From positions 584,133 to 648,132 of the forward strand of contig OY282371.1 of assembly GCA_958295715.1 (NCBI GenBank): a stretch of 64,000 nt of DNA, read 5' to 3'. The translations under genes and the position numbers were made by a program. This DNA comes from an uncultured Dehalococcoidia bacterium. GTDB lineage: Bacteria; Chloroflexota; Dehalococcoidia; Lucifugimonadales; GCA-2712585. The notes under the pieces were generated by a model. It was not told the origin of the DNA. It saw nothing but the letters and a program-made list of their open reading frames with translations, and did no database searches. Shown piece by piece: positions 3,047-64,000 of this stretch. Within the stretch, counting starts at the first letter, position 1. Each line of letters starts with the position of its first letter.

Positions 3047-3365
3047 GTCATTCCCACTCCCTCCCCTCCGTCATTCCCGCGCAGGCGGGAAGGGCGCGTG
3101 CGCCCACTTAGTTTTGAAGAGGGTTGGTTCTGCGTTGGGGGCTTCCGAATTCCCGCCCTCCTTCCCGTCATTCCCGCCCCCTCCCCTCCGTCATTCCCGC
3201 AAAGGCGGGAATCCATCCCCTCTTACATCCCAAAACCAACGCCTCAAGGCCCGGCGGCATCCGTAGGAACGTATAAGGGACGCCTGCCGTCTGCCCCACG
3301 AGAGGAAGGAAGATGGATTCCCGCCTTTGCGGGAATGAAGAATAGAGGGATGGGAATGACGGGAA
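3047..3365. repeat. mosaic intergenic repeat block (hairpin ATTCCCGC-N4-GCGGGAAT family)
   Basis: Hairpins at 3073-3092, 3193-3212 and 3317-3336. Half-sites GTCATTCCC at 3047 and 3167, each 23 bp before the next. RS-A module with palindrome GGGCGCGTGCGCCC at 3092-3105 followed by ACTTAGTTTTG. Confidence 0.9.
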
Positions 3366-3472
3366 AAGGGCAGGCAGGGCCAACCCGACATCCCGCCAAC
3401 GACTACAGAGACGCCGAAAACCCTATGAGCAACTCATAGATATCTTCTAACGACTTTTGCTAAAATTGAAGC

Positions 3473-3889
3473 ATGTTCAAGGTAACCATCCCCTTATCAG
3501 TTCTTGGCCTCGTCAGCCTCGCCTTTGGCATCCTTCTACTGGTCACCGGCGCCCTTCTGCTGGGCGTTGTCCTCACCCCCGTGGCGTCCGTCCTGCTTCT
3601 GGCCGCGGCGTTCCTCGTCTTCAGGAGTAGGCGGAAGTCCGCCCCTGCGAAACAGGCGGCGCCCGCCGACGTTCCCCTCAGGTCCCGCACCGACCTCAGC
3701 GGCGCGGATAAGGCCGAGGTCTGGTTGGCCATTCAGACCATGCAGCGACACCACGGCCACTCCGACCTTAAGGGCCTCATCAAAAGCAAGCTGTTGGGCC
3801 ACTCCCTGGACCGCGACGACTGCCAGGTTTGCGGCCTGCCCAGGTTCCAACGAAGCTATCGTTGGCTGGAAGAGGTGATGAACAGGTAG
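3473..3889 (+). CDS. hypothetical membrane protein
   Basis: 138-aa ORF. The N-terminal ~50 aa are strongly hydrophobic (two predicted TM segments, IPLSVLGLVSLAFGILLLVTGALLLGVVLTPVASVLLLAAAFLVF), followed by a basic stretch. No family recognised. Competing overlapping ORFs look like shadow frames. Confidence 0.5.
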   Translation: MFKVTIPLSVLGLVSLAFGILLLVTGALLLGVVLTPVASVLLLAAAFLVFRSRRKSAPAKQAAPADVPLRSRTDLSGADKAEVWLAIQTMQRHHGHSDLKGLIKSKLLGHSLDRDDCQVCGLPRFQRSYRWLEEVMNR

Positions 3890-3917
3890 CCCTTCCCGCC
3901 ATCGTCGAGAGCCAGCC

Positions 3918-4334
3918 ATGCCCTTCCAACAACTCATCGCCGACCTGGCCCGCATAAACAGGATGCTTTTTGTTGTTGGAAGCGGCCCCTGCGTCAGCGA
4001 GATGTACTCCGACGGCAAAACCGCCCCGGAGTTTCAAGGCCAGTGGGCGATGGTGGAGTCCGAAAGCTGGCATCTGCACCTCGACGTGGCCCAGGTCGAG
4101 TCGGCCCAGTTCGTGGAGGCGGAGGACCACGGCGCGCCGCTGCTGTACTACGTCCGTTTCTCCAACCACGACGGGGAAACCCTGCTCCGGGCCTACTTCC
4201 CCAACCCCTACCTGGACGACAACGACAGGCCGGCGGGGTTCCAGCCCAAGAAGCTGGCGGCCTTTGAGGAGCTCCGGGACCGGCACGTGGGCCAGCCGGG
4301 GATAGTATTCGTCAAGAGGCCCAAGACGGCGTAG
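3918..4334 (+). CDS. hypothetical protein
   Basis: 138-aa ORF with GC-rich third codon positions, 28 nt after the preceding gene. No motif identified with certainty. Only a vague, unverified resemblance to ChuX/HutX-like small beta proteins (..WHLHLD..YYVRFSNHDGETLLRAYFPNP..). Confidence 0.55.
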   Translation: MPFQQLIADLARINRMLFVVGSGPCVSEMYSDGKTAPEFQGQWAMVESESWHLHLDVAQVESAQFVEAEDHGAPLLYYVRFSNHDGETLLRAYFPNPYLDDNDRPAGFQPKKLAAFEELRDRHVGQPGIVFVKRPKTA

Positions 4335-4410
4335 GCTCGCCGCCCGCGCCCCCCCTAAGCCGCGCGCCATCCGTGGAGCGTCCCTTGTGGGCGCCTCTCG
4401 CCCCCTCCCC

Positions 4411-5400
4411 CCGCAGGTGTTATCCGTAATGGTTGGATGGTCTGTTCATCTGATGGGGGGAGATGGATTCCTGCCCTACTTTCCGTCATTCCCGCGAAGG
4501 CGGGAAGGGCGCGTGCGCCCACTTAGTTTTGAAGAACGCTGGTTCTGCGTTGACGGCCTTTCTGGATTCCCGCCCTCCTTTGCGTCATTCCCGCGCAGGC
4601 GGGAAGGGCGTGTGCGCCCACTTAGTTTTGAAGAGCGCTGGTTCTGCGTTGACGGCCTTTCTGGATTCCCGCCCTCCTTTGCGTCATTCCCGCAAAGGCG
4701 GGAAGGGCGCGTGCGCCCACTTAGTTTTGAAGAGCGATGGTTCTGGGTTGTGGCGCCCCATCCGTCATTCCCGCGCAGGCGGGAAGGGCGCGTGCGCCCA
4801 CTTAGTTTTGAAGAGCGATGGTTCTGGGTTGTGGCGCCCCATCCGTCATTCCCGCGCAGGCGGGAAGGGCGCGTGCGCCCACTTAGTTTTGAAGAGCGAT
4901 GGTTCTGGGTTGACGGCGCCCCCCATCCGTCATTCCCGCGAAGGCGGGAATCCATCCCATCCCCCGCTGCGCCGGGGGGAGCCGCGCCCCAACACGCGCT
5001 CCCTCCCTCAGGCCCCCATCGCCGCAGGTGTTATCCGTAATGGGTGGATGGTCTGTTCATCTGATGGGATGAGGGAAGATGGATTCCCGCCTTCGCGGGA
5101 ATGACGAGAGGGGGAGGCGTGGGAATGCCGGTGGGAGTGAGCGTGGGAATGACGGATGGGGGAGGCGCGGAATGGCGGTGGGAGTGAGCGCGGAATGCCG
5201 GTGGGGGGGGCGTGGGAATGCCGGTGGGAGTGAGCACCGGAATGCCGGGAAGGGAGAGTAGGGAATGACGGCGGCTGGCGGGCTGGAATCGGGAAGCGCC
5301 CAATGGAGAACCAACGCTCCGCAAAACTAAATGGGCGCACGCGCCCTTCCCGCCTTCGCGGGAATGCCGGTAGGGAGGCGCGCGGAATGCCGGTAGGGGC
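4411..5400. repeat. large composite repeat region (tandem RS-A array plus inverted half-site array)
   Basis: 47-bp direct repeats at 4411-4457 and 5022-5068 flank the array. Hairpins at 5083-5102 and 5346-5365. A reverse-oriented RS-A copy lies at about 5285-5345. Confidence 0.92.
4485..4955 (+). repeat. six-unit tandem array of the RS-A element
   Basis: GTCATTCCCGC starts at 4485, 4584, 4683, 4764, 4845 and 4929, giving spacings of 99, 99, 81, 81 and 84. Each unit is hairpin + GGGCG(C/T)GTGCGCCC + ACTTAGTTTTGAAGA(A/G)CG(C/A)TGGTTCTG. Confidence 0.95.
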
Positions 5401-5406
5401 CGGTGG

Positions 5407-5619
5407 CTACCGGGGCTTGGGCACGTGAGAGGCCCCGCTTGCGATCGGCTCGTTGAAGTAGATGTCGCCGTTGCGAATCTTCAGGTTGAACCCGCAGCTT
5501 GGGTTAGTGCAGACCCAAGCCTTGTAGTGAACGGATGCCCCCTGGCTGCCGTAGTCCGACAGCGGGACCAACTGACCTACGTTGCACTTTAGACATTGTG
5601 GCAGCAGCGCATCTTCCAC
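5407..5619 (-). CDS. small zinc-ribbon protein (hypothetical)
   Basis: 70 aa. GTG start preceded by GGGAGGTGGAG about 7 nt upstream. Two Cys pairs, CLKC ... CTNPSC. GC is lower than in the flanking repeats. Divergent from htpX. Confidence 0.55.
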   Translation of the reverse strand: MEDALLPQCLKCNVGQLVPLSDYGSQGASVHYKAWVCTNPSCGFNLKIRNGDIYFNEPIASGASHVPKPR

Positions 5620-7689: not shown

Positions 7690-8613
7690 ATGGAAGAGTT
7701 TGACGTTATCATTCTCGGCGGCGGCGCCGCGGCCCTCAGCGCGGGGCTATACTCCACCCGCGCCATGCAGAAGACCCTCATATTGGAACGACTGGGTTAT
7801 GGCGGCCAAATCCTCGTCACCGACATGATTGAGAACTACCCCGGCTTCCCCGAAGGCATCCGGGGCCCGGAGCTTTCTACCCTCATGGAGCAGCAGACCC
7901 GCCGGTTCGGCGCCGACATGCGATACGAGGAGGTCCTATCGGTGGAGAAGCTGGACCAGCCCCTCAAGCTGGTCCACACCTCCGAGGCCTCCTACGCTGG
8001 CAAGACCGTTATCATCGCCACCGGAGGTTCCCACAAGAAGCTGGGCGTGCCGGGGGAAGACCAGCTCTCCGGCAAGGGCGTGTCCTACTGCGCGGTATGC
8101 GACGGCAACTTCTTTAGGGGCCAGGACGTTGTTGTCGTTGGCGGCGGCGACGCGGCCCTTGACGAGGGCGGCTACCTCACGGGGCTTGTGAACAAGGTCA
8201 CCGTCATCCACCGCCGCGACCAGCTGCGCGCCAGCAGAATCCTCCAAGAGCGCTCCTTCAACAACCCTAAGATGGAGTTTCTGTGGAGCCACGTGGTGGA
8301 GGAGTTCCAGGGCGGCGTCGAGTTGGAGACGGCCCTGGTCCGGAACCTGAAGACCGCCGAGGTGTACAAGCTCCCCACGGCGGGGGCCTTCATCTACATC
8401 GGCTTCGAATCCAACAGCGGCTTTCTCAAGGGGCACGTGCCGATGGACGAGCTCGGCCACATAGAGACCAACATATCCATGGAGACGGCTATCCCCGGCG
8501 TCTACGCCTGCGGCGACATAAGGGTGAACTCGGACCGGCAGCTGGGCAACGCCGTGGGCGACGGCATCACCGCGGCCCTCTCCGCCTACAGGCACATAAC
8601 CGAAGGCTCCTAA
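7690..8613 (+). CDS. trxB: thioredoxin-disulfide reductase
   Basis: 307 aa with ILGGGAAALSAGLY (FAD), redox-active CAVCDG, and VVGGGDAALDEG (NADPH). Confidence 0.93.
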   Translation: MEEFDVIILGGGAAALSAGLYSTRAMQKTLILERLGYGGQILVTDMIENYPGFPEGIRGPELSTLMEQQTRRFGADMRYEEVLSVEKLDQPLKLVHTSEASYAGKTVIIATGGSHKKLGVPGEDQLSGKGVSYCAVCDGNFFRGQDVVVVGGGDAALDEGGYLTGLVNKVTVIHRRDQLRASRILQERSFNNPKMEFLWSHVVEEFQGGVELETALVRNLKTAEVYKLPTAGAFIYIGFESNSGFLKGHVPMDELGHIETNISMETAIPGVYACGDIRVNSDRQLGNAVGDGITAALSAYRHITEGS

Positions 8614-8680
8614 GCGCGGCTGGCGCCGGCGGGGTCTGGGCGGCATCCTCGCTCACCACCAAACGAGGGATGGCGGCCTC

Positions 8681-8960
8681 CCGTCATTCCCGCGCAGGCG
8701 GGAATCCATCTTTATCCATCTTCCCTCCTCCAATCACATGAACGGACGCTCACCCCACTGCGGGCAGCGGGACGGAGGGACATCCCTTGTGGCCGTCCAC
8801 ACGTGCGACGCTGAGGTTTAAACCTCGGTCTTGGGACAAGGCTTCCTGGATTCCCGCCTGCGCGGGAATGACGAAAAGAGGCGGGAAGACGGTTATGCGC
8901 GGGTATAGTCGGCGGCCACGCCGACCAAGGGGATGGACTCCCGCCTGAGCGGGAAGGGCG
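8681..8960. repeat. mosaic intergenic repeat block
   Basis: Hairpins at 8686-8705 (ATTCCCGCGCAGGCGGGAAT) and 8850-8869 (ATTCCCGCCTGCGCGGGAAT), with a degenerate copy at 8936-8955. They flank a ~145-bp unique RS segment. Confidence 0.85.
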
Positions 8961-8963
8961 GAT

Positions 8964-9001
8964 AAGAAGAGACAGAAAGGGACAGCTGATAGCCGTCCCT
9001 T
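8964..9001 (-). terminator. putative intrinsic terminator of the HesB-like gene
   Basis: On the minus strand, AAGGGAC-11 nt-GTCCCTT (8977-8983 / 8995-9001) is followed by TCTGTCTCTTCTT. Confidence 0.5.
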
Positions 9002-9027
9002 TCCTCAACTCTGTTGTTTAGCTTGGC

Positions 9028-9405
9028 CTAGTGGCTGCCGCAGCCCCCGCTGCCGCATCCACAGCCACCCCCGCCGGCTCCACAGCCGCACCCGCCGCTG
9101 CCGCATCCCCCGGCGGCCGGATAGTCGGGGTTGGTGATGAGGAAACCCACCCGGGTGAAGTCCTCCACGAAATCTATGGTCGCCTTCTCCAAGAAGGGGG
9201 CGCTGTCCGAGTCCACCAAGAACTTGATGCCGCTCCTGTCCAGCGTGGTGTCATCCGGCTGGTCGTCGTTCTCCAGGGTCAGCATGTACTGGACGCCGCC
9301 ATGCTCGTTGGGCAGGGCTATCACCCGCAAGGGCGTGTCCTCCTTCCCCTCCTCCACCAGAACCTCCTTGATCTTCTCCATCGCTATGTCGGTGACCTGC
9401 ATCAT
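9028..9405 (-). CDS. HesB/IscA-like iron-sulfur cluster assembly accessory protein with Cys/Gly-rich C-terminal tail
   Basis: The ORF is open to 9471, but ATGATG at 9405-9400 follows GGAGAA. IscA-like core ..AMEKIKEVL..LRVIAL..GIKFLVDSDSAPFLEKATIDFVEDFTRVGFLITNP.. The tail GGCGSGGCGCGAGGGGCGCGSGGCGSH has 7 Cys. Confidence 0.7.
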   Translation of the reverse strand: MMQVTDIAMEKIKEVLVEEGKEDTPLRVIALPNEHGGVQYMLTLENDDQPDDTTLDRSGIKFLVDSDSAPFLEKATIDFVEDFTRVGFLITNPDYPAAGGCGSGGCGCGAGGGGCGCGSGGCGSH

Positions 9406-11104: not shown

Positions 11105-11355
11105 GGCATTCCCGCACTCACTCCCACCTGCATTCCCACGCCCCCCCTCGTCATTCCCGCGAAGGCGGGAATCCATCTTTCCCGATTCCCTGCTAACGCC
11201 ATCGTTTTCCTTTGAGAGACCGTCGGGTTGAGGCGGCAGGCTGGCCGAAGGCGTGAGAGCGACACATTGGCCGTTAGGGGTTGGGGCCTTACTGGATTCC
11301 CGTTTTCACGGGAATGACGGAAAGGAGGCGGGAATGACGGAAAGGCGGGAAAGGG
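11105..11355. repeat. mosaic intergenic repeat block (contains RS-B unit, reverse orientation)
   Basis: Hairpins at 11153-11172 and 11296-11315 (variant ATTCCCGTTTTCACGGGAAT). The segment between them is the reverse complement of 27555-27665. Confidence 0.88.
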
Positions 11356-11436: not shown

Positions 11437-11880
11437 ATGGCTGCGATTCGTCGTGCGGAGGTTACGTGGAACGGGGACCTGCTCGCCGGGAAGGGGGCGG
11501 TTACCGCCAGCGCCAGCAAGGCGTTCACCGGGATGCCCGTTACGTGGGCGGCTCGGACTAAGACGCCGGAGGGGCTCACCAGCCCCGAGGAGTTGGTGGC
11601 CGCGGCTCACGCCAGTTGCTACGCCATGGCCTTTTCCGCCGGCCTAGGCCAGGGTGGAACGCCGCCCGAAAAGCTGGAGGTGAGCGCCGAGGTCACCTTT
11701 GACAACGTGGACGGCGGTTGGCGGGTGGTGTCCAGCGCGCTGGAGGTCCGCGGGTGGGTGCCCAACATCAACATCGCGGCCTTCTCAAAGGCGGCGGAGG
11801 CGGCCAAGGACGGCTGTCCCATTTCTCAGGCATTGAAGGGGAACGTGGAACTGAGCGTCAAGGCCATCCTTATAGGATAG
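11437..11880 (+). CDS. osmC: OsmC family peroxiredoxin
   Basis: 147 aa with EELVAAAHASCYAMAF and KDGCPISQAL, the two conserved Cys contexts of OsmC. Confidence 0.9.
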   Translation: MAAIRRAEVTWNGDLLAGKGAVTASASKAFTGMPVTWAARTKTPEGLTSPEELVAAAHASCYAMAFSAGLGQGGTPPEKLEVSAEVTFDNVDGGWRVVSSALEVRGWVPNINIAAFSKAAEAAKDGCPISQALKGNVELSVKAILIG

Positions 11881-12257: not shown

Positions 12258-14171
12258 GTGGTGACAATGGAAGCTATCAACCCTCTGGTGAGCAGGCGGC
12301 TCCGGGAAGGGGCCGAGGATCCCGAGGGGTTTTGGGAGCGGGCCGCCGAGGCGCTGCCCTGGTTTCGCCGGTGGGACCAGACCTTCCAGCCTGAGTCCCC
12401 GTCCTTCCGGTGGTACGCCGGCGGCATAACCAACCTGGGGCACAACTGCGTCGACGTCCACGCCCTTGGCGGCCGTGGCGGGCAGGCGGCCCTTATCTAC
12501 GTCAACGAGCGCGGGGAGCGGGCGGTTCTCACCTACGCCCAGCTATATCACCGGGTAAGGCAGGCGTCGGCGGCCCTGCGGGGCTTGGGCGTCGGCAAGG
12601 GAGACCGCGTCACCATCTACATGCCGCCCTGCCCCGAGTCCGTGGTCCTCATGCTCGCCGCCGTGCGCATTGGCGCCATCCACTCGGTGGTGTTCGCCGG
12701 GTTCGGGGCGGGGGCCTTGGGGGAACGTATAGCCGCCAGCGGCTCAAAGTTGACCTTCACTTGCGACGTGACCTACCGCAAGGGGGGAGAGATACCCTTG
12801 AAGGGAATAGTCGACGCGTCCCTGGAGGCGGCGGGCGTCCCCGGAGGGCGGGTCGTCGTGCTGGCCAGGAGCGGACGGGAGACGCCCATGACTCCCGGCC
12901 GGGACCTCACCTGGGACGAGTTCCTAGCCCGGTCGGAGGGCCAGCCTGACGGCCATGAGCCGGTCGAGTCCAACGAACCCGCCTTCATTCTTGCCACCTC
13001 CGGCACCACGGCCAAGCCCAAGCTGGTTGTGCACGCCCACGGCGGCTACCAGGTGGGGGTTCACGCCATGGGGGCCTGGTGCTTCGGCATGAAGCCCGAG
13101 GACGTTTGGTGGGCGACCTCCGACATCGGTTGGATTGTTGGGCACAGCTATATGGTGTACGGCCCCCTGCTGTACGGGTGCGCCACCGTTGTCTATGAGG
13201 GCGCGATGGACTATCCCACCCCCGACGCCCTCTGGCGCGTCGCCGAGGAGTTGGGTGTTACGGGAATTTTCACGTCGCCCACGGCGGTGCGGCTGCTGAC
13301 TCGATACGGCGAGGCGGCCAAGCCATCCTCCAAGCTGCCGTTGCTGGAGCGGGTGTTCTGCGCCGGCGAGACCCTGAATCCGCCGGCCTGGGAGTGGTTC
13401 CAAAAGGAGGCTTTAGGCGACAGGGCGCCGGTGATAGACCACTACTGGCAGACGGAGACCGGCGGGCCGGTGATTGGCAACCCCTACGGCATAGCGATGC
13501 TGCCCATTAAGCCCGGCTCGGCGGGGATACCCCTGCCCGGCGTGGAGGTTGGGGTGATGACCCCGGATGGCGTGGAGTGTGGCCCCGGCGAGAGGGGGAT
13601 ACTGGTCATCAAGCGTCCCTTCCCCAGCCTGACGCCCGCATTGTGGGGGGAGCCGGAGCGGTACGGCGATGACTACTGGAAGCGCATTCCCGGCAAAGAG
13701 GTCTACTTCGCCGGCGACTCGGCCTACGTGGACGAGGACGGTTACGTGTGGTTTGCGGGCAGGGCCGACGAGGTTATCAAGATTGCGGCCCATCGCATTG
13801 GCGCCGTTGAGGTGGAGTCGGCCCTGCTGACCCATTCCGGCGTGGCGGAGGCCGGGGTGACGGGTCGGCCCGACGAGGTGAGGGGGGAGGTCATCTCTGC
13901 CTTTGTGGTCCTAAAGAACGAACGAAGCCCGTCGGAGGCCCTGCGGCGGGAGATTCTCCAGACCTTGCGGGAACGCCTTGGCCCCATTGCCGTGGTGGGT
14001 GAACTGAACTTTGTGGAGGCGCTGCCCAAGACTCGCAGCGGCAAGATTATGCGCCGGGTGTTGAAGGCGGTTGTTCTGGACCAGGACCCCGGCGACGTGA
14101 CCACCATTGAGGAGGAGGGGTCCGTGGAGGAGGCGCGGCAGGCCTGGCGGCAGCTGCGGGGCGAGGGGTAG
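12258..14171 (+). CDS. AMP-forming acyl-CoA synthetase (acetate/propionate--CoA ligase family)
   Basis: 637 aa with ILATSGTTAKPKLVVH, WWATSDIGWIVGHSYMVYGPLLYG and LPKTRSGKIMRRVL. AAGGAGG precedes GTG 12258 and ATG 12267. Confidence 0.87.
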   Translation: MVTMEAINPLVSRRLREGAEDPEGFWERAAEALPWFRRWDQTFQPESPSFRWYAGGITNLGHNCVDVHALGGRGGQAALIYVNERGERAVLTYAQLYHRVRQASAALRGLGVGKGDRVTIYMPPCPESVVLMLAAVRIGAIHSVVFAGFGAGALGERIAASGSKLTFTCDVTYRKGGEIPLKGIVDASLEAAGVPGGRVVVLARSGRETPMTPGRDLTWDEFLARSEGQPDGHEPVESNEPAFILATSGTTAKPKLVVHAHGGYQVGVHAMGAWCFGMKPEDVWWATSDIGWIVGHSYMVYGPLLYGCATVVYEGAMDYPTPDALWRVAEELGVTGIFTSPTAVRLLTRYGEAAKPSSKLPLLERVFCAGETLNPPAWEWFQKEALGDRAPVIDHYWQTETGGPVIGNPYGIAMLPIKPGSAGIPLPGVEVGVMTPDGVECGPGERGILVIKRPFPSLTPALWGEPERYGDDYWKRIPGKEVYFAGDSAYVDEDGYVWFAGRADEVIKIAAHRIGAVEVESALLTHSGVAEAGVTGRPDEVRGEVISAFVVLKNERSPSEALRREILQTLRERLGPIAVVGELNFVEALPKTRSGKIMRRVLKAVVLDQDPGDVTTIEEEGSVEEARQAWRQLRGEG

Positions 14172-14178: not shown

Positions 14179-14763
14179 CTAAGCCCGCGTCAGCTCGCCG
14201 CGCAGGTCCCTCGCCTGTTCCTGGATAGTCCGCCTTGGCGCGGCCATCTCCTGGGGCCGTTGGCCCGTGAGCCGGGGGTTGGGAACCAGCTTCACGCAGA
14301 CCATTACGGGGCCTGTCTGATTCAAGACCTCCTCGGCGCGGCTGGCGAACTCCTCCAAGTCTTCGAACTCGTAGGTGGCCGGATAGCCCGCGTCCTTGGC
14401 CAGACCGGTGAAGGAGATGACGTCTTTGCCGGGGATGGGCTGCCCGCCGGTGGTGGCGTACATGCCGTTTTCCAAAACAAAGTGGTAGAGGTTGCGGGGC
14501 TGGCTTGCGCCTATGGTGGCCAGGGTTCCCAGGTTCATCAGCAGGCTGCCGTCGCCGTCTAGGACGATGACCTTGGCCTCGGGCTGAGCCAGGCACACGC
14601 CAAGGGCGAAGGATGACCCCTTGCCCATAACGGTGGGGGAAAGGTCTCGCTTGGGGTTGGCGCTGACCTTGGGCCAGGCGACGCCGGCCCGCTCTACGGG
14701 AACGACCACGGCGTCGCCGCGGTGTCGCTGGATTACCTGCATCATCTGGGTCTGTTCAATCAT
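14179..14763 (-). CDS. thiamine-diphosphate-binding protein, sulfopyruvate/phosphonopyruvate decarboxylase beta-subunit-like
   Basis: 194 aa. TPP-binding motif VIVLDGDGSLLMNLGTLATIG..N. Length and layout resemble ComE. No alpha-subunit gene lies adjacent. Confidence 0.65.
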   Translation of the reverse strand: MIEQTQMMQVIQRHRGDAVVVPVERAGVAWPKVSANPKRDLSPTVMGKGSSFALGVCLAQPEAKVIVLDGDGSLLMNLGTLATIGASQPRNLYHFVLENGMYATTGGQPIPGKDVISFTGLAKDAGYPATYEFEDLEEFASRAEEVLNQTGPVMVCVKLVPNPRLTGQRPQEMAAPRRTIQEQARDLRGELTRA

Positions 14764-14875: not shown

Positions 14876-15455
14876 GTCATTCCCGCGAAGGCGGGAATCC
14901 ATCCCCTCCCGTCCCTCGCCAGTGTTGCGCCGGCACAACCCGCACCACAGCGCCACACCCCCCTCGCCACCCGTCCGCCCGGCAAGGGGGTCCAGGCTCG
15001 CTAAAGTCAGGGCCTGTCATAGCGATGTAGCCTTCCTGGATTCCCGTGCAGGCGGGACTCCATCCCCTCCCGTCCCTCGCCAGTGTTGCGCCGGCACAAC
15101 CCGCACCACAGCGCCACCCCCCCCCCCCCCCCCCGCCACCCGTCCGCCCGGCAAGGGTCCAGTCTCGCTAAAGTCAGGGCCTGTCATAGCGATATAGCCT
15201 TCCTGGATTCCCGCCTACGCGGGAATGACGGAAAGGGGGGCGGGAATGACGGATGGGAAAGGCGGGAATGGCTGAAAGGGGGCGGGAATCCAGAAATCAC
15301 CAACGCTCTTCAAAACTTAAGTGGGCGCGCGCGCCCTTCCCGCCTGCGCGGGAATGGCTGAAAGGGGGGCGGGAATCCAGAAATCCCCAACGCTCCCCAA
15401 AACAAAAATGGGCGCACGCGCCCTTCCCGCCTACGCGGGAATGACGGATGGGGGG
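14876..15455. repeat. mosaic intergenic repeat block (two RS-C units, two reverse RS-A units)
   Basis: Hairpins at about 14879-14898, 15039-15058, 15206-15225, 15335-15354 and 15422-15441. RS-C is duplicated with a 161-bp period. RS-A palindromes GGGCGCGCGCGCCC and GGGCGCACGCGCCC are in minus orientation. Confidence 0.9.
15117..15134. repeat. homopolymeric C18 tract
   Basis: 18 consecutive C in the second RS-C copy, where the first copy (14957-14966) reads ACCCCCCTC. Confidence 0.97.
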
Positions 15456-27371: not shown

Positions 27372-27705
27372 CCTCCCCTCCCGTCATTCCCGCGAAGGCG
27401 GGAAGGGCACGCGTGCCCATTTTTGTTTTGGGGAGCGGTGGTTCTGCGCTGGCGGCTTCTGGATTCTCGCCCCCTCTTTCCGTCACTCCTGCCCCTCTCA
27501 CATTTGTCATTCCCGCCTGCCCTCCCTCCCGTCATTCCCGTGAAAACGGGAATCCAGGAAGCCTTCATCACAAAACGGCCTATGAGCCGCGCTCACGACT
27601 TCCGGCCCGGCCTGCCGCCTCAACCCGACGGTCTGTCAAAGGAAAACGATGGCGTTAGCAGGGAATAGGGAAAGATGGATTCCCGCCTGCGCGGGAATGA
27701 CGGAA
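27372..27705. repeat. mosaic intergenic repeat block (RS-A + RS-B units)
   Basis: Hairpins at about 27386-27405, 27535-27554 (variant ATTCCCGTGAAAACGGGAAT) and 27678-27697. RS-A palindrome variant GGGCACGCGTGCCC at 27405-27418 followed by ATTTTTGTTTTGGGG. Confidence 0.9.
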
Positions 27706-31187: not shown

Positions 31188-32447
31188 GTGTTGAGGGCGC
31201 CCCGTGGCGCTAGGGACATTCGTCCCGATGAGCAGAAGTACTGGCGGCACGTCGAGGGGAAGGCGGCGGACCTGGCCCGGCGCCACGGGTTCCGCCGGCT
31301 GGACACTCCGGTTTTTGAGGACTCGAGCCTGTTCGCCCGGTCGGTGGGCGCAGGCACCGACATCCTTGACAAGGAGACCTACTCCTTTCTCGACCGGGGC
31401 GGCGATTCCCTCACCCTGCGGCCCGAGGGGACGGCCCCGGTGTGCCGCGCCTATATGGAGGGCGGCATGGGCAGCCTCCCCCAGCCGGTGCGCCTCTACT
31501 ACTTCTGCCCCGTGTTCCGGTACGACCGCCCCCAGGCCGGGCGCTACCGCCAGCACCACCAGTTCGGGGTGGAGGTGCTGGGCGACGGCAGCCCTCTTGT
31601 GGACGCTGAGGTCGTCCGCATGGCGTGGGCCCTGATGGCCGATTTGGGGCTGAAGGACGTGTCCCTCCTGGTGAACAGCATCGGCGACTCCCAGTGCAGG
31701 CCGGGCTACGTTAGGGAGCTGCGGGCCTACTATTCGGAACGCGCGGGCCGCCTCTGCGCCGACTGCAAGCAGCGCCTGGACAACAACCCGCTGCGCCTCT
31801 TGGACTGCAAGAAGGAGTCCTGCCGGCCCATGCAGGAAGACGCCCCGGCGTCTTCGGAGCATCTCTGCGCCGACTGCCGGGAGCATTGGGACTACCTGCG
31901 GCGCTACCTGGACGTTATGGAGATTCCCTACGCGGTCAATCATCGTCTGGTGAGAGGCCTTGACTACTATACCCACACGGTATTTGAAATCCTGCCGCCG
32001 GAGGAGGGCGCTCAGACCACCCTGTTGGGGGGAGGCCGCTACGATGGCCTGATGGAGCAGTTGGGGGGGCGTCCGACGCCGGGGGTGGGCTTCGCGACGG
32101 GGATGGAGCGGCTCATCCTCAACGTCCAGCGTCAGGGCGTGGCCGTTGCAGAGGAGGAGGCCCCCCGCTACTTTATCGCGGCCTTGGGTGACGAGGGCGT
32201 GGAGTTGGCCTTGGAGATAGCCGACGGGGTCAGGGCCACGGGCGCCGGGGTGACGATGGGTTCCCGCGGCCGGAGTCTGCGCGGCCAGATGCGTAACGCC
32301 GGCTCCCTTGGCATTCCCCAGGTGATAATCATAGGCAGGGACGAGGCGGCCGCCGGCTCCGTTACCCTGCGGGACATGACCACGGGCCGCCAGAGTACGG
32401 TCCCCAAGGGGGAGTTTCTTGGAGGGTTGCAGCCGCCCTCCGGCTGA
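31188..32447 (+). CDS. hisS: histidine--tRNA ligase
   Basis: 419 aa with PRGARDIRP, class-II motif 2 FCPVFRYDRPQAGRYRQHHQFGVE, and GGGRYDGL. Confidence 0.93.
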   Translation: MLRAPRGARDIRPDEQKYWRHVEGKAADLARRHGFRRLDTPVFEDSSLFARSVGAGTDILDKETYSFLDRGGDSLTLRPEGTAPVCRAYMEGGMGSLPQPVRLYYFCPVFRYDRPQAGRYRQHHQFGVEVLGDGSPLVDAEVVRMAWALMADLGLKDVSLLVNSIGDSQCRPGYVRELRAYYSERAGRLCADCKQRLDNNPLRLLDCKKESCRPMQEDAPASSEHLCADCREHWDYLRRYLDVMEIPYAVNHRLVRGLDYYTHTVFEILPPEEGAQTTLLGGGRYDGLMEQLGGRPTPGVGFATGMERLILNVQRQGVAVAEEEAPRYFIAALGDEGVELALEIADGVRATGAGVTMGSRGRSLRGQMRNAGSLGIPQVIIIGRDEAAAGSVTLRDMTTGRQSTVPKGEFLGGLQPPSG

Positions 32448-35203: not shown

Positions 35204-36808
35204 CTAGGCTCCGTCGGCGTAGGGCATGGCGGCCTCCATCATCATGCCCTGCTCGCCCAGGGAGCGGTGGACCCGCTGGGCCGGCTGGTACGCCGACGGG
35301 CGGGGCGGCATTTCAAACCCACGGCCTTCCAACAGATCTGCGATTGAGCGAATCTGTATCTTGGGGTAGTCGCGGTTCCACAGGACCGAATGAAACAGGC
35401 CGCCGCCGCTCGCCTCTCTCCGCATCTCCCGCGTTGGCTCCTCCAAGGTTATGAACAGCCCCAAGGCCGCCTTCTCCCGCTCCACCACGCCCCGCAGGTC
35501 GCGGACGTGGGGGGAGGAGACCCTTCCGCCCTTGACCTGGACCACCACCTTCTGAGGGCTGCGCCGCGGCCCGTCAATGAAGTAGAGCAGCCCGTCAATG
35601 CCCCGGTCGGCGCCGCGTTTCCGCCTCTCCCGAGGTTGTGCTTCCAGCAGGGAGATAGCCCAGAACTGGAACTGGTAGGGGTCCATCTCCCACAGGGCGC
35701 GGGCGCTGCCCACGTCCAGCGGCTCGCCGACCACCTGGTAATGGAGGCGCGGCTCCAGGCTGAAAGCGGTCTTCAGGCGGTTCTTAATCAGGGCCACCGC
35801 CAGGTGTGTGACGTCAATGCCGATCCACCGGCGGCCCAGCTTCTCGGCGGCGGCCACGGCGGAGCCGCAGCCACAGAAGGGGTCCAGCACCACGTCGCCC
35901 TCCTTGGATGACGCCTGAATGATGCGCTCCAGCAGGGCTTGGGGCTTCTGGGTGGGGTAGCCCAGCCGCTCTTTGGCCTGTGAGTTGATGGGCGGCAGGT
36001 CAGTCCATACGTCTTGAAGACGCATACCCGGCATTTCGTCAAGATAACGCACGTACTCCGCAATACCGTTGCGCGTGTAGTGTATTCGCCCCTCCCTCTG
36101 CCATCGTTCCATCGTACGGCGGGGCGCGCGCCATACACGCGTAACGCCGTTCCATTCGTACTCATACCCGCCGCCGCTCAGTCCCGTTGCCGTCAGGTTG
36201 TCGGTTCGATAGAGACGGCCTTTTTCGGTCTTGTGACGGTAATGGGACTTGATGTAGTCCTGGTCGTAGGGTTGATACTGTATATTCCAGGAGAATTTTG
36301 ACCTGTCTTGGGCGTAGAGCAGGATGATGTCATGGGTGCGTCCGAGGGCCTTCGAGTCGCTGTGAGCCGACGTGCGTTTCCAGACAATCTCATTCTTGAA
36401 GTTCTTGACTCCAAACACCGAGTCCATGAGCAGCTTCAGGTAGTGGCTGGCCGTCGGGTCGCAGTGCAGGTAGATGGAGCCGGTGGGCTTGAGGACCCGG
36501 CGCAGCTCCACCAGCCGGGGGGCCATCATCACCAAGTAGGCCATCATGGCGTTCCGGCCGACGAACTGCCTGAAGGCCGCGACCATCTCCTTGACCTCCA
36601 CGGGGGTACGCGGACTGGCGATGATGTCCAGTTCGTAGGCGCGTTCCGTCTCCTGAGTCCACTCCCAGGTGTCGGTGAAGGCCTTTATCTGCGCCGGCGA
36701 CTCCTCGCCCGACCTCTCCCTGAACAGCACGTTGTAGTTGGCGTTGGAGTTGAAGGGCGGGTCCAGGTAAATCAGGTCCACCGACTCGTCGGCCACATGC
36801 TCCCGCAT
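35204..36808 (-). CDS. site-specific DNA methyltransferase (N4/N6, beta class) fused to a C-terminal Mrr/PD-(D/E)xK-like nuclease domain
   Basis: 534 aa from the first canonical ATG. Motif IV DPPF (aa 16-19) precedes motif [25 protein letters not shown]. The C-terminus reads ..[38 protein letters not shown]. Conserved residues ..[10 protein letters not shown] lie upstream of the ATG (see findings). Confidence 0.85.
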
Positions 36809-39135: not shown

Positions 39136-39199
39136 AATTGGCCTGTTCCTTTACATTCGCGCGGGGGCGGTCATGCCCATGAGGCCGAGGGTCCGGGCC
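39136..39199. repeat. 64-bp direct repeat, right copy (authentic argS 3' end)
   Basis: See the left copy at 36872-36935. This copy is contiguous with the full argS ORF. Confidence 0.95.
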
Positions 39200-53115: not shown

Positions 53116-53456
53116 CCGTCACCTCTCGCCGCCCATCCGTCATTCCCGTCCTCTCATCCCTTCCGTCATTCCCGCGAAGGCGGGAATCCATCTTTCCCTC
53201 TTTTATCCCAAAGGCAATCGCAATATGGCGCAAGCGCCAGTAAGAGCTAGTCTTGTTACGGCCAGACCGGCTTAAGGTCTCCATCCCTCGTTGAGGAGAG
53301 AGATTGGAGTGTTCTGGGTATTGGGCCGTGGCGGCGCTGTAAGGTGGGGGATGGATTCCCGCCTGCGCGGGAAGGGCGCGTGCGCCCATTTTTGTTTTTG
53401 GGGAGCGTTGGTTCTGCGTTGGGGGCTTCCTGGATTCCCGCCTGCGCGGGAACGAT
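53116..53456. repeat. mosaic intergenic repeat block
   Basis: Half-sites at about 53118 and 53139. Hairpins at about 53166-53185, 53346-53365 and 53432-53451. RS-A palindrome GGGCGCGTGCGCCC at 53374-53387 followed by ATTTTTGTTTTTGGGG. Confidence 0.9.
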
Positions 53457-54821: not shown

Positions 54822-54839
54822 CGGAGGCCTAGCGACTGA

Positions 54840-54942
54840 AAGTCCGTAGGGGAGCCGGGTGAGCCTGGCTGAGAGGGCGACCCCCGAATGTCGCCGACCC
54901 TTACGACCTGATCTGGGTAATGCCAGCGGAGGGAGCGCGGCG
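54840..54942 (+). promoter_or_regulatory. TPP (THI-box) riboswitch
   Basis: GGGGAGC..GCCUGGCUGAGA..ACCCUUACGACCUGAUCUGGGUAAUGCCAGCGGAGGGA matches the conserved TPP aptamer core (CUGAGA, ACCUGAUCUGGnUAAUgCCAGCG). An extra hairpin GGCGAC..GUCGCC occupies the variable P3 position. Confidence 0.88.
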
Positions 54943-54968
54943 CGCGTTAGGTTCGCGTATCCGACAGG

Positions 54969-59443: not shown

Positions 59444-59473
59444 GGCTTCAACACATAGCGTTAGGAGACTTGA

Positions 59474-61159
59474 ATGACCGCCGACACTCAGCTACGGATG
59501 AGGCCCCACAGCAGCGTTATCATGGACGGCCCCGACCGCGCCCCGGCGCGGGCCATGCTCCGGGCCACCGGCCTGGGCGATAGGGAGCTGCACCAGCCCT
59601 TTGTGGGCGTGTCGAACCTGGCCAGCGACGTTACGCCCTGCAACGTTCACCTCTACGGCCTTGTGCGGGCCGTCAAAGAGGGGGTGCGGTTGGCCCAAGG
59701 CACGCCCTTTGAGTTTGGAACGCTCACGGTCAGCGACGCCGTTTCCATGGGAACCCAGGGGATGAAGGCCTCCCTCGTGAGCCGCGAGGTTATCGCCGAC
59801 TCCATCGAGTTGGTGTCCTTCGCCGAGGGGTTCGACGGCCTAGTCACCGTGGCGGGCTGCGATAAGAATATGCCGGGAACGGTGATGGCCGCCGCCCGGC
59901 TCAACATCCCCGCTATCTTCGTCTACGGCGGGACCATTTTGCCGGGACGGTACAGGGGCAGGGACGTGAACATTCAGGACGTCTTTGAGGCCGTGGGCGC
60001 CCACTCCAAGGGCAGCATATCCGATGAGGAGTTGAAGGAGGTGGAGCGGGCCGCCTGCCCCGGCGCCGGCTCCTGCGCGGGCCTCTTTACGGCCAACACC
60101 ATGTCGTCGGCCATCGAAGCGTTGGGCCTCAGCCTGCCGGGCGACGCGTCGATACCGGCCGTGGAGGAGGACAAGCTGGCGGCGGCGCGGCGGGCCGGCC
60201 AAGCCGTTCTGAGTCTCATGGAGAAGGGCATAAGGCCGAGGGACATCCTGACCCGCGAGGCCTTTGAAAACGCCATAACCGTTGTGACGGCCATGGGCGG
60301 CTCCACCAACGCCGTCCTCCACCTGCTGGCCATCGCGCGGGAGGCCGGGGTGCCCCTTTCCATTGACGACTTTGACGTCATCAGCGACAGGACGCCCTAT
60401 ATCGCGGACATGAAGCCGAGCGGGCGGCACGTAATGGCCGATCTGCACCGGGTGGGCGGTGTTCCCCTGGTGATGAAGCGGCTCCTCGACGCGGGCCTTC
60501 TCCACGGCGGCGTTATGACCGTGACGGGAGAGACCGTTGAGCAAAACCTGGCATCGGTGGACGCCTCACTGGACCAGCCGGTGGTTTCCACCATTGAGGC
60601 TCCACTTGGGGCCACCGGCGGCCTCGCCATCCTCAAGGGCAACCTGGCCCCGGAGGGCTGCGTCGTTAAGATAGCCGGCAAGGAGCATCTCTATCAGAGG
60701 GGGCCGGCCAGGGTGTTCGACCGGGAGGAGGACGCCTTCACCGCCATACAAGCTCAGGAGATACGGGCGGGGGACGTGGTGGTGATACGCTACGAAGGGC
60801 CGAAGGGCGGCCCCGGTATGCGGGAGATGCTTACGGTGACGGGGGCCTTGGTGGGGCAGGGGTTGGGGGAGAGCGTGGCCCTTATGACCGACGGCAGGTT
60901 TTCCGGGGCCACCCACGGGCTCATGGTGGGCCACGTTGCCCCGGAAGCGGCGGTGGGCGGCCCCCTAGCCCTCCTGCGGGACGGCGATACGGTGGTGGTG
61001 GACGTTCCGGGCCGCAGGCTTCAGGTGGAACTGCCCGAAGAAGAGATGCGGCGTCGGGCCGGGGAGTGGTCGCCGCGTCCCACCGATTACCCAACTGGCG
61101 CCCTGGCCAAGTACGCCAAGCTGGTGTCCTCCGCCTCCCAGGGCGCGGTGACCGGCTAG
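59474..61159 (+). CDS. ilvD: dihydroxy-acid dehydratase
   Basis: 561 aa with [24 protein letters not shown] and [14 protein letters not shown]. Confidence 0.95.
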
Positions 61160-61230: not shown

Positions 61231-61282
61231 CGTCATACCCGCTTTTCTTCTCTCGTCATTCCCGCGCAGGCGGGAATCCATC
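61231..61282. repeat. single repeat element (half-site + hairpin)
   Basis: CGTCATACCC half-site 23 bp before GTCATTCCCGCGCAGGCGGGAATCCA. Confidence 0.85.
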
Positions 61283-61362: not shown

Positions 61363-62613
61363 ATGATGGAAATTCTGGTTGGCACTCTGATTGTGGTTCT
61401 ATTTATAGTGATAGTCGCGTTGGCGGCGGCGCTGGTCCTGCGTTCCCGCGGCGAGCAGGCCAAGCCTTCCGGCGACGCGCTGAGGGCGGAGTTCCAAGCC
61501 CTGTCTCAGGCCGCCCTGAGAGAGGCCAACGAGCAGTTTCTCGCCCTTGCGGAGCAGCGTTTCGCCCGGCTTACGGAGGCGGGATCCCACGACCTCCAGG
61601 GCAAGAAGACCCTTATCGACCAGCAGCTTGAGAATATGAAAAAGGAGTTGGGCAAGGTTACAGACCTGGTCCAGAGGGTTGAGAGGGACAGGGAGGCCAA
61701 GTTCGGGCAGCTAACCACCGAAATCAAGAACATCGGCCAGCAGGCCAACGCCCTCACCGCCTCCACGACCACCCTTAGAGAGGCCCTGGCCAGTTCCCGT
61801 TCCAGGGGCCAGTGGGGGGAGCGGATGGCCGAGGACATTCTCAGGATGATGGGGTTTGTCGAAGGGGTCAACTACGAAAGGCAGAAGAGCGTTGACGGCG
61901 GCCGTTCCCGTCCCGACTTCACCTTCCTGCTGCCCAAGAGGTTGAAGATAAACATGGACGTGAAGTTCCCCCTGGAAAACTACCTCAACTATCTTGACGC
62001 CGGTTCCGACTCCGACAGGTCAAGCTATCAGAAGGCCTTCTTGGGAGACGTTAAAGCGAGGGTTAACGAGGTTAGCGGCCGGGACTACATCGACCCGGGG
62101 CAGGGCACCGTGGACTACGTTCTCCTCTTCATTCCCAACGAAAGCGTCTACGCCTTCATACATGAGAATGACCGCAACGCCATGGATTCGGCCCTTGAGA
62201 AGAAGGTCATATGGTGCTCTCCCCTAACCCTCTACTGCGTGCTGGCCGTGGTGCGCAAGGCCGTGGAGAACTTCGCCATGGACCAGCGTTCCGACGAGAT
62301 AATTTCGCTGGTGGGGACCTTTGAAGACCAGTGGAGGAAGTTCTCAGACAGCATGGATACGCTGGGGAAGCGGTTGTCTTCCACCCAAACCGCCTTTGAC
62401 ACGCTTACCGGGGTCAGGAGCCGGGGGCTTGAGCGTTCCATAAACAGGATAGAGCAACTGCGTCAGAATCGGGGTCTCTCGGCGGCTGACCTCGGCGACG
62501 ACCTGGGCGATCTGTTCAAGCTGCCGCCGGGCCATGAGGAGGCCGGCGCGGTGGATGGCGACGGAGCCTTCCTAGACGGGGATGAGCCGAGGAGGACTGC
62601 CAACGCGCCTTGA
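61363..62613 (+). CDS. rmuC: DNA recombination protein RmuC
   Basis: 416 aa. N-terminal TM helix, long coiled-coil, and a C-terminal nuclease-like region ..RPDFTFLLP..INMDVKFPL..YVLLFIPNESVY. The last ~23 aa are encoded by the first unit of the 83-bp array. Confidence 0.88.
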   Translation: MMEILVGTLIVVLFIVIVALAAALVLRSRGEQAKPSGDALRAEFQALSQAALREANEQFLALAEQRFARLTEAGSHDLQGKKTLIDQQLENMKKELGKVTDLVQRVERDREAKFGQLTTEIKNIGQQANALTASTTTLREALASSRSRGQWGERMAEDILRMMGFVEGVNYERQKSVDGGRSRPDFTFLLPKRLKINMDVKFPLENYLNYLDAGSDSDRSSYQKAFLGDVKARVNEVSGRDYIDPGQGTVDYVLLFIPNESVYAFIHENDRNAMDSALEKKVIWCSPLTLYCVLAVVRKAVENFAMDQRSDEIISLVGTFEDQWRKFSDSMDTLGKRLSSTQTAFDTLTGVRSRGLERSINRIEQLRQNRGLSAADLGDDLGDLFKLPPGHEEAGAVDGDGAFLDGDEPRRTANAP

Positions 62614-62883
62614 CGGGCCGATTCCCCGGCGCGGTGGATAGCGACGGAGCCTTCCTAGACGGGGATGAGCCGAGGAGGACTGCCAACGCGCCTTGACGGG
62701 CCGATTCCCCGGCGCGGTGGATAGCGACGGAGCCTTCCTAGACGGGGATGAGCGGCAGAAGACTGCCGGCGCGCCTTGACGGGCCGGTTCCCCGGCGCGG
62801 TGGATGGCGATGGAGCCTTCCTAGACGGGGATGAGCCGAGGAGGACTGCCAACGCGCCTTGACGGGCTGGTTCCCCGGCGCGG
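62544..62883. repeat. 83-bp tandem repeat, ~4.1 copies
   Basis: GTGGAT(G/A)GCGA landmarks at 62551, 62634, 62717 and 62800, a period of 83. The array fills the whole convergent gap between rmuC and the SDR gene. Confidence 0.95.
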
Positions 62884-62892
62884 CGTTTGGGG

Positions 62893-63687
62893 CTAGATGA
62901 TGCCTGCCAAGGCGCCGCCGTCCAGGCTCACGCTCTGCCCCGTGATGTAGCCGGCCCGCTCAGACGCGAGAAAGGCTATCAGGTCGCCCATCTCCTCGGG
63001 CCGTCCCAGCCGCCGCATGGGTATCCGGTGGGCGGCCTCCTTCATAAGCTGCTCGGCGTCGCCGCCCTGCTCCCTGGCCATGGCCCCGTAGAGGCTCGTC
63101 ATCCTGTCCGTCATCACCTGTCCCGGCAAAACGTTGTTGACGGTTATGTTGAAGCGCGCCAACTCGTTGGACAGCATTTTGGCGTATCCCACCACCGCCA
63201 GGCGGCTGGAGGTGGATAGGACCAGGTTCAGCACCGGCTCCTTCACGGCGTTGGAGAGGAGGTTGATTATCCTGCCCCAGCGCTGCTGTTTCATGTAGGG
63301 AATAACCTCCCGGCTCATCCTCATCGCGCTCATGAAGTTCTGCTCCATGGCGTCGTACCATCGCTGGTCTGCCAGGTCGGATGGCCTTCCGGGAGGAGGC
63401 CCGCCGATGTTGTTGACCACTATGTCGATGCGCTCGAACCGGTTGAAGGTGTCGCGGGCCACGAGCCGGATGCTCTCCGGCTTGGACAGGTCCGCGGGTA
63501 TTGCGAGGACGTGTTGCTGAGAGGCGACCCGTATTATCTCGATCTCCGCCTTGCGCAGGTCCGCCTCGGTGCGGGCGCAGATGGTCACGAATGCGCCCTC
63601 TCGGACTAGGGCCATGGCCGCGGCCTTTCCCATGCCCTTGCTGGCCCCGCCCACAATGGCCACCCGGTCCTTAAGCCCTAGGTTCAT
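62893..63687 (-). CDS. SDR family oxidoreductase (3-oxoacyl-ACP reductase-like)
   Basis: ATG 63687 gives MNLGLKDRVAIVGGASKGMGKA (TGxxxGxG-type). Catalytic Y..K in VVGYAKMLS. The longer ORF to 63777 enters repeat DNA. Confidence 0.85.
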   Translation of the reverse strand: MNLGLKDRVAIVGGASKGMGKAAAMALVREGAFVTICARTEADLRKAEIEIIRVASQQHVLAIPADLSKPESIRLVARDTFNRFERIDIVVNNIGGPPPGRPSDLADQRWYDAMEQNFMSAMRMSREVIPYMKQQRWGRIINLLSNAVKEPVLNLVLSTSSRLAVVGYAKMLSNELARFNITVNNVLPGQVMTDRMTSLYGAMAREQGGDAEQLMKEAAHRIPMRRLGRPEEMGDLIAFLASERAGYITGQSVSLDGGALAGII

Positions 63688-63770
63688 CTGCCCAGCCTCT
63701 ACAGGGTGAAGTGTGGTCAAATGATAACCAAAGCGGGACGCCAAGGCAAGAGCGGCGCCCGCCCCCCTAT

Positions 63771-64000
63771 TCGTCATTCCCGCTTCTCCCCTCCGTCATT
63801 CCCGCGCAGGCGGGAATCCATCTTCCTTACCGCCGCTGCGATAGGGCAAGAACGCCTTGGCGCGACCTAGCCCCGTTGGGGTCAAACTCGCGTGAGGGGA
63901 CTACGGGTGATGCCGGGGTTTGGGGCGTTGGTTCTGCTGTGCAGGGTTCCTGGATTCCCGCCTTCGCGGGAATGAGGGGCAGAGTGTGCGGAGAATGACG
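63771..64000. repeat. mosaic intergenic repeat block (runs off window end)
   Basis: Half-site at 63773. Hairpins at about 63797-63816 and 63953-63972. The RS tail ..GGGGCGTTGGTTCTGCTGTGCAGGGTTCCTGG resembles the RS-A tail. Confidence 0.88.

Follow-up and report, generated by a model that had tools for sequence, protein, structure and literature searches.

The 64,000-nt stretch analyzed here (the window, C1:584133-648132) carries about 30 copies of a 20-bp hairpin in its long intergenic regions. On sequence grounds this hairpin is the NTS/SRM repeat of Neisseria, the DNA partner of the single-strand-specific GIY-YIG nucleases of the Ssn family. It is likely that the hairpins are the repeats of an Ssn system and that the hairpin clusters are gene-less derivatives of a unit in which hairpins bracket the nuclease gene ssnA. 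The hairpins double as a landing pad for insertion sequences (ISs). Four observations link the repeat to one ssnA gene: the two are adjacent, the clusters share the termini of the ssnA unit, the stem co-varies in congeners, and repeat and gene co-occur at the genome level. The assembly has 2.40 Mb in two contigs with 64% G+C and is 96.6% complete; C1 is its near-complete 2.35-Mb contig. The RecG encoded in the window is closest to those of Dehalococcoidia metagenome-assembled genomes (MAGs), with 57-62% amino acid identity, which places the host as a Dehalococcoidia bacterium (Chloroflexota) and no relative of Neisseria. Its lifestyle is probably free-living.

According to the main text of Chenal et al. 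(2025; Nat Commun 16:2388, PMC11893778), about half of the dRS3 copies in Neisseria belong to a longer directional repeat, the NTS (CGTCATTCCCGCGMAVGCGGGAATCYRG). SsnA of N. meningitidis is described there as a 94-aa single-domain GIY-YIG nuclease that binds the NTS hairpin only as single-stranded DNA and only on the forward (F) strand, cuts a few nt 5' of the hairpin and does not bind the RNA form. In N. meningitidis the enzyme trims incoming transforming DNA. Three bases before the palindrome are critical for cutting and the C after it for binding. Related SRM motifs flank ssnA homologs in several phyla, and genomes with dense repeats are enriched among plant and animal symbionts. The same text leaves open the role of Ssn outside Neisseria and whether Ssn is responsible for the repeats.

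In the window, the pattern ATTCCCGY-N4-RCGGGAAT has 16 exact matches (0.00 expected from shuffles). Allowing up to three mismatches raises the number to 31 (0.64 expected), of which 30 fall in nine intergenic blocks; the remaining one, at position 39155, is a chance match. An earlier sequence-only reading of the window had counted roughly 30 hairpins in these nine blocks, found none inside confident coding sequences and stated that they fill most long intergenic regions. All three statements hold: every block is occupied, a purpose-built hexamer-based gene caller gave 0 overlaps between hairpins and called window genes, and by reading of the called-gene list all intergenic regions longer than 300 bp carry hairpins. 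The genome-wide scan for intergenic enrichment that it proposed was also carried out, with a positive outcome. C1 contains 685 exact dRS3 patterns and ~990 copies at two or fewer substitutions, a density of one per 2.4 kb. Of 988 copies, 922 fall outside called genes in a genome that is 85% coding, and those inside called genes are nearly all in low-scoring spurious open reading frames or at gene ends. There are 298 clusters, of which 238 contain 2 to 9 hairpins; their total span is 95.8 kb, or 4.1% of the chromosome. The second contig, C2 (55,210 bp), has 0 hairpins where ~23 would be expected at chromosomal density; C2 could represent plasmid or phage DNA, or it may have been binned wrongly.

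The likeness to dRS3 and to the Neisseria intergenic mosaic elements (NIMEs), also pointed out by that reading, extends into the flanks of the hairpin. The 28-nt NTS consensus has 127 exact matches in the genome, 451 at one or fewer mismatches and 653 at two or fewer. The degenerate SRM pattern has 665 matches against 26-35 in simulated genomes, a ~20-fold excess; the control consisted of three first-order Markov simulations, which are similar but not identical to the dinucleotide shuffles of PMC11893778. A forward unit is composed of a C-rich flank, CCGTC, the palindrome ATTCCCGCGCAGGCGGGAAT and CCA, followed by GGAA ('a' ends) or TC ('b' ends). In 'c' ends, which start the segment family RS-A, the palindrome terminates in GGGAAG and a second small hairpin, GGGCGCGTGCGCCC, follows. 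Folded as single-stranded DNA, the unit forms an 8-bp stem and a 4-nt loop with z-scores of -3.1 to -4.3 relative to shuffles. In the genome copies the G, T and C before the palindrome are conserved at 96%, 89% and 97% and the C after it at 77%; ~200 RS-A-type copies terminate in GGGAAG-G in place of this C. The best-conserved flank positions coincide with the critical positions published in the main text of PMC11893778, and this fits an NTS/SRM repeat.

The ssnA homolog (C1:1514336-1514623, 95 aa) is found 866 kb beyond the window. Its product matches PF01541 with 56.9 bits (cut-off 22.6). No other small GIY-YIG gene is present in the genome, and this one is single-copy; the other GIY-YIG match is a 653-aa frame, which we take to be UvrC. 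Residues Y7, Y18 and E65 correspond to the mutated catalytic residues Y6, Y17 and E64 of Neisseria SsnA with a uniform one-residue offset; the match is a positional correspondence only, and the three residues are invariant in four Dehalococcoidia homologs. The cognate enzyme is by all sequence criteria a small GIY-YIG Ssn nuclease and neither a RAYT nor an IS110 transposase. The sequence-only reading had named RAYT or IS110/Piv as the candidate enzymes, a proposal that gives way to this putative nuclease; its remark that no cognate recombinase is present in the window was correct, as IS110, RAYT and ssnA all have no window copy.

An F hairpin lies 18 nt upstream of the ATG of ssnA, and three reverse (R) hairpins follow from 112 nt past the stop codon; both sides face inward, so that the gene is placed exactly at the polarity switch of its cluster. 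Only the ends of the ssnA unit recur elsewhere, the left end (~40 nt) in 167-231 copies and the right end (~55 nt) in 110-325 copies. A tblastn search with E values up to 10 found no ssnA remnants inside the clusters.

Overall, F and R copies are equal in number (498 vs 495), the GC skew is weak and the counts are balanced in every 100-kb bin of the genome. Within clusters, F copies lie on the left and R copies on the right, with 205 F-R vs 24 R-F junctions (p = 5e-37). This polarity is the same for convergent, divergent and tandem neighboring genes and is obeyed by nine of nine window clusters. The innermost pairs mostly combine one 'a' and one 'b' end, and 'a'-'a' pairs are depleted (p = 5e-9). 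In addition, there are 302 orphan half-sites (GTCATTCCC), 240 of which lie 60 nt or less upstream of a full forward hairpin, mostly at 21-24 nt or double that distance.

The clusters are read as gene-less derivatives because of their common F...R polarity and because they share only the terminal ~40 and ~55 nt with the ssnA unit. If the F strand is cut 5' of the hairpin, the F-then-R polarity would put the predicted cuts at both outer edges of a cluster, one per strand, which makes the clusters look like IS-like derivatives without a gene. A cluster may derive from an insertion-sequence-like hairpin-ssnA-hairpin unit by loss of the gene, and tandem duplication together with recombination between palindromic cores may then have enlarged the arrays into mosaics. 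The Ssn nuclease, whose activity is taken from the literature on Neisseria, would spread or maintain the repeats.

Comparison with other genomes was carried out at two levels. Across 300 evenly sampled Chloroflexota genomes, 27 genomes from 12 of 169 genera (this one included) contain the exact NTS core. The next-highest count is 128 vs 501 here, and other assemblies have 24-128. Of the 20 genomes that have 10 or more NTS copies, 18 encode ssnA, as do 30 of the remaining 280 (odds ratio 75, p = 3e-14). A comparison with 40 relatives showed high numbers of the exact hairpin only in this genome (666 copies by the same pattern) and in congener G009 (569 copies); a few others have 17-21 copies. 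Most congeners carry 19-136 copies of the stem variant ATTCCGGC...GCCGGAAT, a compensatory double change with 0 copies in this genome. In G004 and G008, this ATTCCGGC/GCCGGAAT variant brackets a compact ~400-bp F-ssnA-R unit; the Ssn homologs of the two are 71-74% identical to that of this genome, and the unit sits between orthologs of two genes that are 34 bp apart here. ssnA is flanked on both sides by the repeat also in G004, G008 and G009. The ssnA unit of this genome is found between tmk and sucD; the counterpart spacer in G006 is ~240 bp long and hairpin-free. The differing positions among congeners indicate that the unit has moved or been lost within the genus.

Several points weigh against this account of the clusters. 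The ssnA gene is flanked by a minority stem variant, GT-GAAA-AC (~135 copies), instead of the most common stem. The NTS-ssnA association is weak (p = 0.08) when only the 40 closest relatives are considered, and G002, G003, G012 and G023 have 12-56 hairpins and no ssnA, a pattern that easier loss of the gene than of the repeats would produce. No insertion boundary or target-site duplication was definable from the congeners or from one metagenome scan because no strain-level relative was found in that single scan (best match 88% amino acid identity); congener coding DNA is only ~75% identical and intergenic regions do not align. In the inter-cluster comparison of this genome there is no sign of a recent burst or movement, the dispersed segment copies being ~77% identical. 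The 95-aa protein is likened to Neisseria SsnA by the published description (length and catalytic positions). NCBIfam has no specific model for it, and a PDB sequence search found no relative and only a spurious WD40 match. A structure prediction from a 4-sequence alignment had a mean pLDDT of 54.5, which does not suffice for a fold search; the succession of elements in this low-confidence model (two strands, two helices, strand, helix) is compatible with GIY-YIG but gives no support for it. A hydrolytic GIY-YIG nuclease cannot by itself rejoin DNA, and a transposition model needs host functions.

A bolder proposal, which we regard as tentative, is that the ~400-bp hairpin-ssnA-hairpin unit is an autonomous mobile element whose sole enzyme is the 95-aa GIY-YIG nuclease, with the 298 clusters as its miniatures. 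In that case nicks at the outer edges would be made as at transposon ends, and host replication or repair would do the joining. If true, the element would represent a transposon class with a hydrolytic GIY-YIG nuclease and would answer the question, raised in 2025, whether Ssn spreads its own repeats. The anatomical clues, including a compensatory stem variant that travels with a diverged ssnA, make Ssn mobilization of the repeats testable at the bench. Trimming of incoming single-stranded DNA as in Neisseria is possible for this host. Homologs of ComEC and DprA are found in the genome and lend weak support; both are common even in bacteria not known to be transformable.

The arrays are composed of hairpins and recurring 57-190-bp segments that are mosaics of common sub-modules. 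The sequence-only reading had proposed three segment families in the window and a genome-wide clustering of the segments, and both are borne out. RS-A has seven copies of the core GGCGCGTGCGCCCACTTAGTTTTGAAGAGCG at three or fewer substitutions; RS-B (11173-11295) and the reverse complement of 27555-27665 are identical at 94 of 109 aligned bases; the RS-C tandem duplicate is identical at 134 of 138. Genome-wide, 694 segments (median 99 bp) form 207 single-linkage families; single linkage fused 294 of the 694 segments into one family and left 160 singletons. Between the RS-C copies lies the hybrid hairpin 15040, with a reverse-type left flank and a forward-type right flank, which is the expected product of unequal exchange between palindromic cores. 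An identity of 95% is attained by only 12 of the 29,705 matches of 120-200 bp between clusters. The top-scoring near-identical matches derive from IS elements. The dispersed copies of long modules are old.

The hairpins have changed less than the segments that they flank. Two families of central segments were located by segment homology alone, which makes the choice of loci independent of the hairpins. Beside segments that are 76-79% identical to one another, 75 of 94 flanking hairpins (80%) are still perfect; at ~12% drift per site over 16 stem positions, an estimated ~13% would stay perfect. This argues that the hairpins are kept by selection or continual homogenization while the segments drift. 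It is a stronger case for hairpin maintenance than the stem variant ATTCCCGT-GAAA-ACGGGAAT, from which the sequence-only reading had argued for selection. The variant is present at 27534 and, reverse-complemented, at 11296, as that reading described. The argument from compensation does not stand: stem and loop are altered together in 135 copies genome-wide, and GT-GAAA-AC is one inherited subfamily marker and not a case of repeated compensation. The compensatory stem variant of the congeners is better evidence for selection on the hairpin, and it is a second and independent line.

Selection might act primarily on RNA, with the hairpins and the second hairpin of RS-A serving as terminators, insulators or mRNA-stabilizing 3' structures; we consider this unlikely. 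The RS-A module, GGGCGCGTGCGCCC then ACTTAGTTTT, is terminator-like at ~10 places by a consensus scan of the scanned part of the window, and cluster 8681-8960 lies between a stop codon and a real terminator, so it is probably transcribed. However, the F-then-R polarity is kept whatever the direction of the neighboring genes, RS-A-type ends face gene 3' and 5' ends equally (68 vs 66), the main hairpin has no T tract, and the repeats match no Rfam family. In the main text of PMC11893778, the RNA form is reported not to be bound by Neisseria SsnA.

Two IS families use the hairpin as a target. The IS110-family element is found in four copies outside the window and encodes a 313-aa DEDD transposase (PF01548 and PF02371). 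All four copies are inserted at CCGTCATT / TGTATGTTG...GGGATACT / CCCGCG, within the left arm of a forward hairpin (target CCGTCATTCCCGC). Its ~230-nt 5' leader has a predicted internal loop with CCGUCAUU on the 5' side and GCGGGA on the 3' side, which correspond to the two halves of the target, the left one on one strand and the right one on the opposite strand. The target-binding loop of the bridge RNA that guides the IS110-family element IS621 reportedly has a like layout, and the leader loop may be a counterpart of it for the target CCGTCAT-T-CCCGC. No donor-binding loop was convincingly identified in the leader and it has no Rfam match. With IS621-type elements, the IS110-family copies share the DEDD transposase, the fixed insertion position and a leader loop with both target halves.

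The IS30-family element has four full copies, all outside the window, and one fragment and encodes a 336-aa transposase with HTH and DDE (rve) domains. Its inverted repeats of ~26 bp begin with GCTAAACTCAC and end with GTGAATTCAC, and all copies sit in a reverse hairpin between GGATTC and ATTCCCGCC. It resembles IS30 and IS1655 of N. meningitidis in the HTH and DDE transposase, the terminal inverted repeats and the strong target specificity. IS30-family elements have palindromic hot-spot targets. The element differs from these relatives in that all copies are in the reverse hairpin and that the reading frame exits the element and borrows its TGA stop from the hairpin flank GGGAATGA. Two unrelated IS families have converged on one 20-bp landing site. 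In Neisseria, filamentous prophages integrate into dRS3.

The sequence-only reading had suspected that the hairpins are recombinase targets, and the four IS110- and four IS30-family copies, each of which interrupts a hairpin at one fixed position, agree with that suspicion. Hairpins serve as IS insertion sites, and the ISs do not produce them. It is very unlikely that the clusters are miniature inverted-repeat elements mobilized in trans by the resident IS30- or IS110-family transposases. Both families are present in four copies and always at hairpins. However, the ends of both are unrelated to the hairpin and share nothing with the repeats, and both split the hairpin, so that it is a target and not a terminus. 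IS copies are 97-100% identical to one another vs ~77% for the repeat segments, and the repeats therefore predate these IS copies.

REP/BIME-type repeats made and moved by RAYT, a domesticated IS200/IS605 Y1 transposase, have a like architecture in outline (inverted pairs of short palindromes, recurring linkers, nearly all intergenic), but the RAYT reading was rejected and is barely credible here, since Y1_Tnp (PF01797) has 0 matches in this 96.6%-complete genome in a search that was positive in 6 of 14 control genomes, and since the repeat fits the NTS consensus and co-occurs with ssnA. Of the RAYT, IS200/IS605 and IS110-family genes for which the sequence-only reading proposed a genome search, only IS110 was found, in four copies elsewhere. 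The genome is a MAG, and the repeats, above all the tandem RS-A and RS-C units, might be assembly duplications; this is scarcely tenable for a family in which substitutions distinguish the copies, which occupies 298 loci of a near-complete 2.35-Mb contig, and of which the independently assembled congener G009 has 569 copies and other Chloroflexota assemblies 24-128.

The pairing of repeat and ssnA is already known, having been published in 2025, and the present genome adds a dense further example with NIME-like mosaics in a Dehalococcoidia host. The repeat has the 25-28-nt sequence of the NTS/SRM-SsnA system in the main text of PMC11893778, down to the directional CGTC 5' flank and the C that follows the palindrome. 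Both systems have hundreds of copies, most of them intergenic, and a repeat-gene association at the genome level. The two are also alike in one ~95-aa single-domain GIY-YIG gene with the repeat on both sides and with the Tyr/Tyr/Glu positions. The host differs, and the main text of that paper makes no mention of Chloroflexota. New relative to that text are the cluster polarity, the position of ssnA at the switch point, the shared termini, and the finding that some congeners have the unit and others lack it. The half-site arrays ~22 nt upstream, the recurring segment families and the convergent targeting by IS110 and IS30 are also new relative to it. The case is a very dense one, in a host far from the symbionts in which dense genomes had been reported there.

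NIMEs are intergenic arrays of 20-bp dRS3 repeats and RS segments and were described as Neisseria-specific (Bentley et al., 2007, PMC1797815). The arrays of this genome are alike in that ATTCCC-N8-GGGAAT repeats flank many families of ~50-190-bp segments between genes and that an IS110/Piv-type recombinase uses the hairpin as integration target. The G+C wave of NIMEs (dRS3 peaks, RS troughs) is absent: hairpins have 61.9% G+C, segments 64.4% and the genome 64.0%. The stated restriction to Neisseria does not apply here, the host belonging to a different phylum. NIME-type arrays were long held to be peculiar to Neisseria, until a wide distribution of the hairpin was shown in the 2025 Ssn paper. 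The REP/BIME-RAYT systems of E. coli and Pseudomonas are alike in inverted palindrome pairs, mosaic linkers, a single-copy cognate gene flanked by its own repeats and the use of repeats as IS110-family targets; they differ in the cognate enzyme, which is an HUH/Y1 transposase there and a predicted GIY-YIG hydrolase here.

The hairpin clusters of the window and the gene adjoining the first of them are as follows (hairpins by start position).
2925-2997, + strand: tRNA gene (Rfam, 72.4 bits), directly upstream of cluster 3047..3365.
3047..3365: three hairpins, forward 3073 (RS-A type), forward 3193 and reverse 3317; orphan half-sites (GTCATTCCC) on the outer left side.
4411..5400: eight hairpins, the largest cluster of the window, forward 4488, 4587, 4686, 4767, 4848 and 4932 and reverse 5083 and 5346; tandem RS-A units follow each of the first five forward hairpins, and a half-site array, GGGAATG(A/C)CGG, with a spacing of ~23-27 nt lies inside the cluster from 5103 to 5280.
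8681..8960: three hairpins, forward 8686, reverse 8850 and decayed reverse 8937; placed after the stop codon of gene 7690-8613 and before a conserved bidirectional terminator (8974-9004).
11105..11355: two hairpins, forward 11153 and reverse 11296 (GT-GAAA-AC stem variant), enclosing RS-B.
14876..15455: five hairpins, forward 14879, hybrid 15040 and reverse 15207, 15336 and 15423; the RS-C tandem duplicate is joined via the hybrid hairpin and two reverse RS-A units are also present.
27372..27705: three hairpins, forward 27386 (RS-A type), forward 27534 (GT-GAAA-AC variant) and reverse 27679; the central segment is the reverse complement of RS-B.
53116..53456: three hairpins, forward 53168 and reverse 53355 and 53434; the central 167-bp segment belongs to a family of 13-15 members.
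61231..61282: one solo hairpin, forward 61258, between ilvD (59474-61159) and the next gene.
63771..64000: two hairpins in the window, forward 63798 and reverse 63954, with a central segment from a family of 28-32 members; the cluster runs beyond the window end to 64162 (window numbering) with two further reverse copies.

Rfam scans of the window, the IS110 locus and the ssnA locus found only this tRNA and a TPP riboswitch at 54838-54953 (+ strand, 64.1 bits), with no match to the repeats or to the IS110 leader.

The spacer of cluster 8681..8960 has no hairpin in G006, L112 and L113, which keep only the conserved bidirectional terminator. This spacer and its orthologs (8613-9028; L087-L091, L112 and L113) are a hot spot in which the repeat family varies with the species: four tandem 150-bp forward units in G009, GTTCCTGCGAAGGCAGGAAC hairpins in G005, and GTCATTCYGAG-type elements in G004 and G002. 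The ortholog of a 419-aa gene (31188-32447, +) adjoins sucD in four congeners (L106, L107, L110, L111), at the site of the ssnA cluster of this genome; the synteny near repeat clusters is fluid within the genus. In G009, 136 CCGG-stem hairpins occur in long same-strand runs (~9 runs vs ~67 estimated for random orientation), and all copies between 274 kb and 961 kb are on the + strand. Some large-scale feature, for example the direction of replication or of genes, thus seems to set the hairpin orientation in G009. Such a bias would fit a mechanism or selection acting on single-stranded DNA; this genome shows none in its 100-kb bins.

Two other loci of the window can be recorded. A GmrSD-type restriction endonuclease gene (PF03235 and PF07510; 36935-39043, - strand) lies in an island of 53-56% G+C adjoining argS, and beside it a DNA methylase is fused to an Mrr-like nuclease domain (35204-36808); the G+C dip is at 36-40 kb. 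An acetyl-CoA synthetase gene (12258-14171, + strand) is located between genes 11437-11880 and 14179-14763. Orthologs of these two genes are adjacent in G006 and G009, where the acetyl-CoA synthetase ortholog maps elsewhere in the genome. The arrangement suggests that the gene has been relocated locally; the neighboring spacers contain hairpin clusters.

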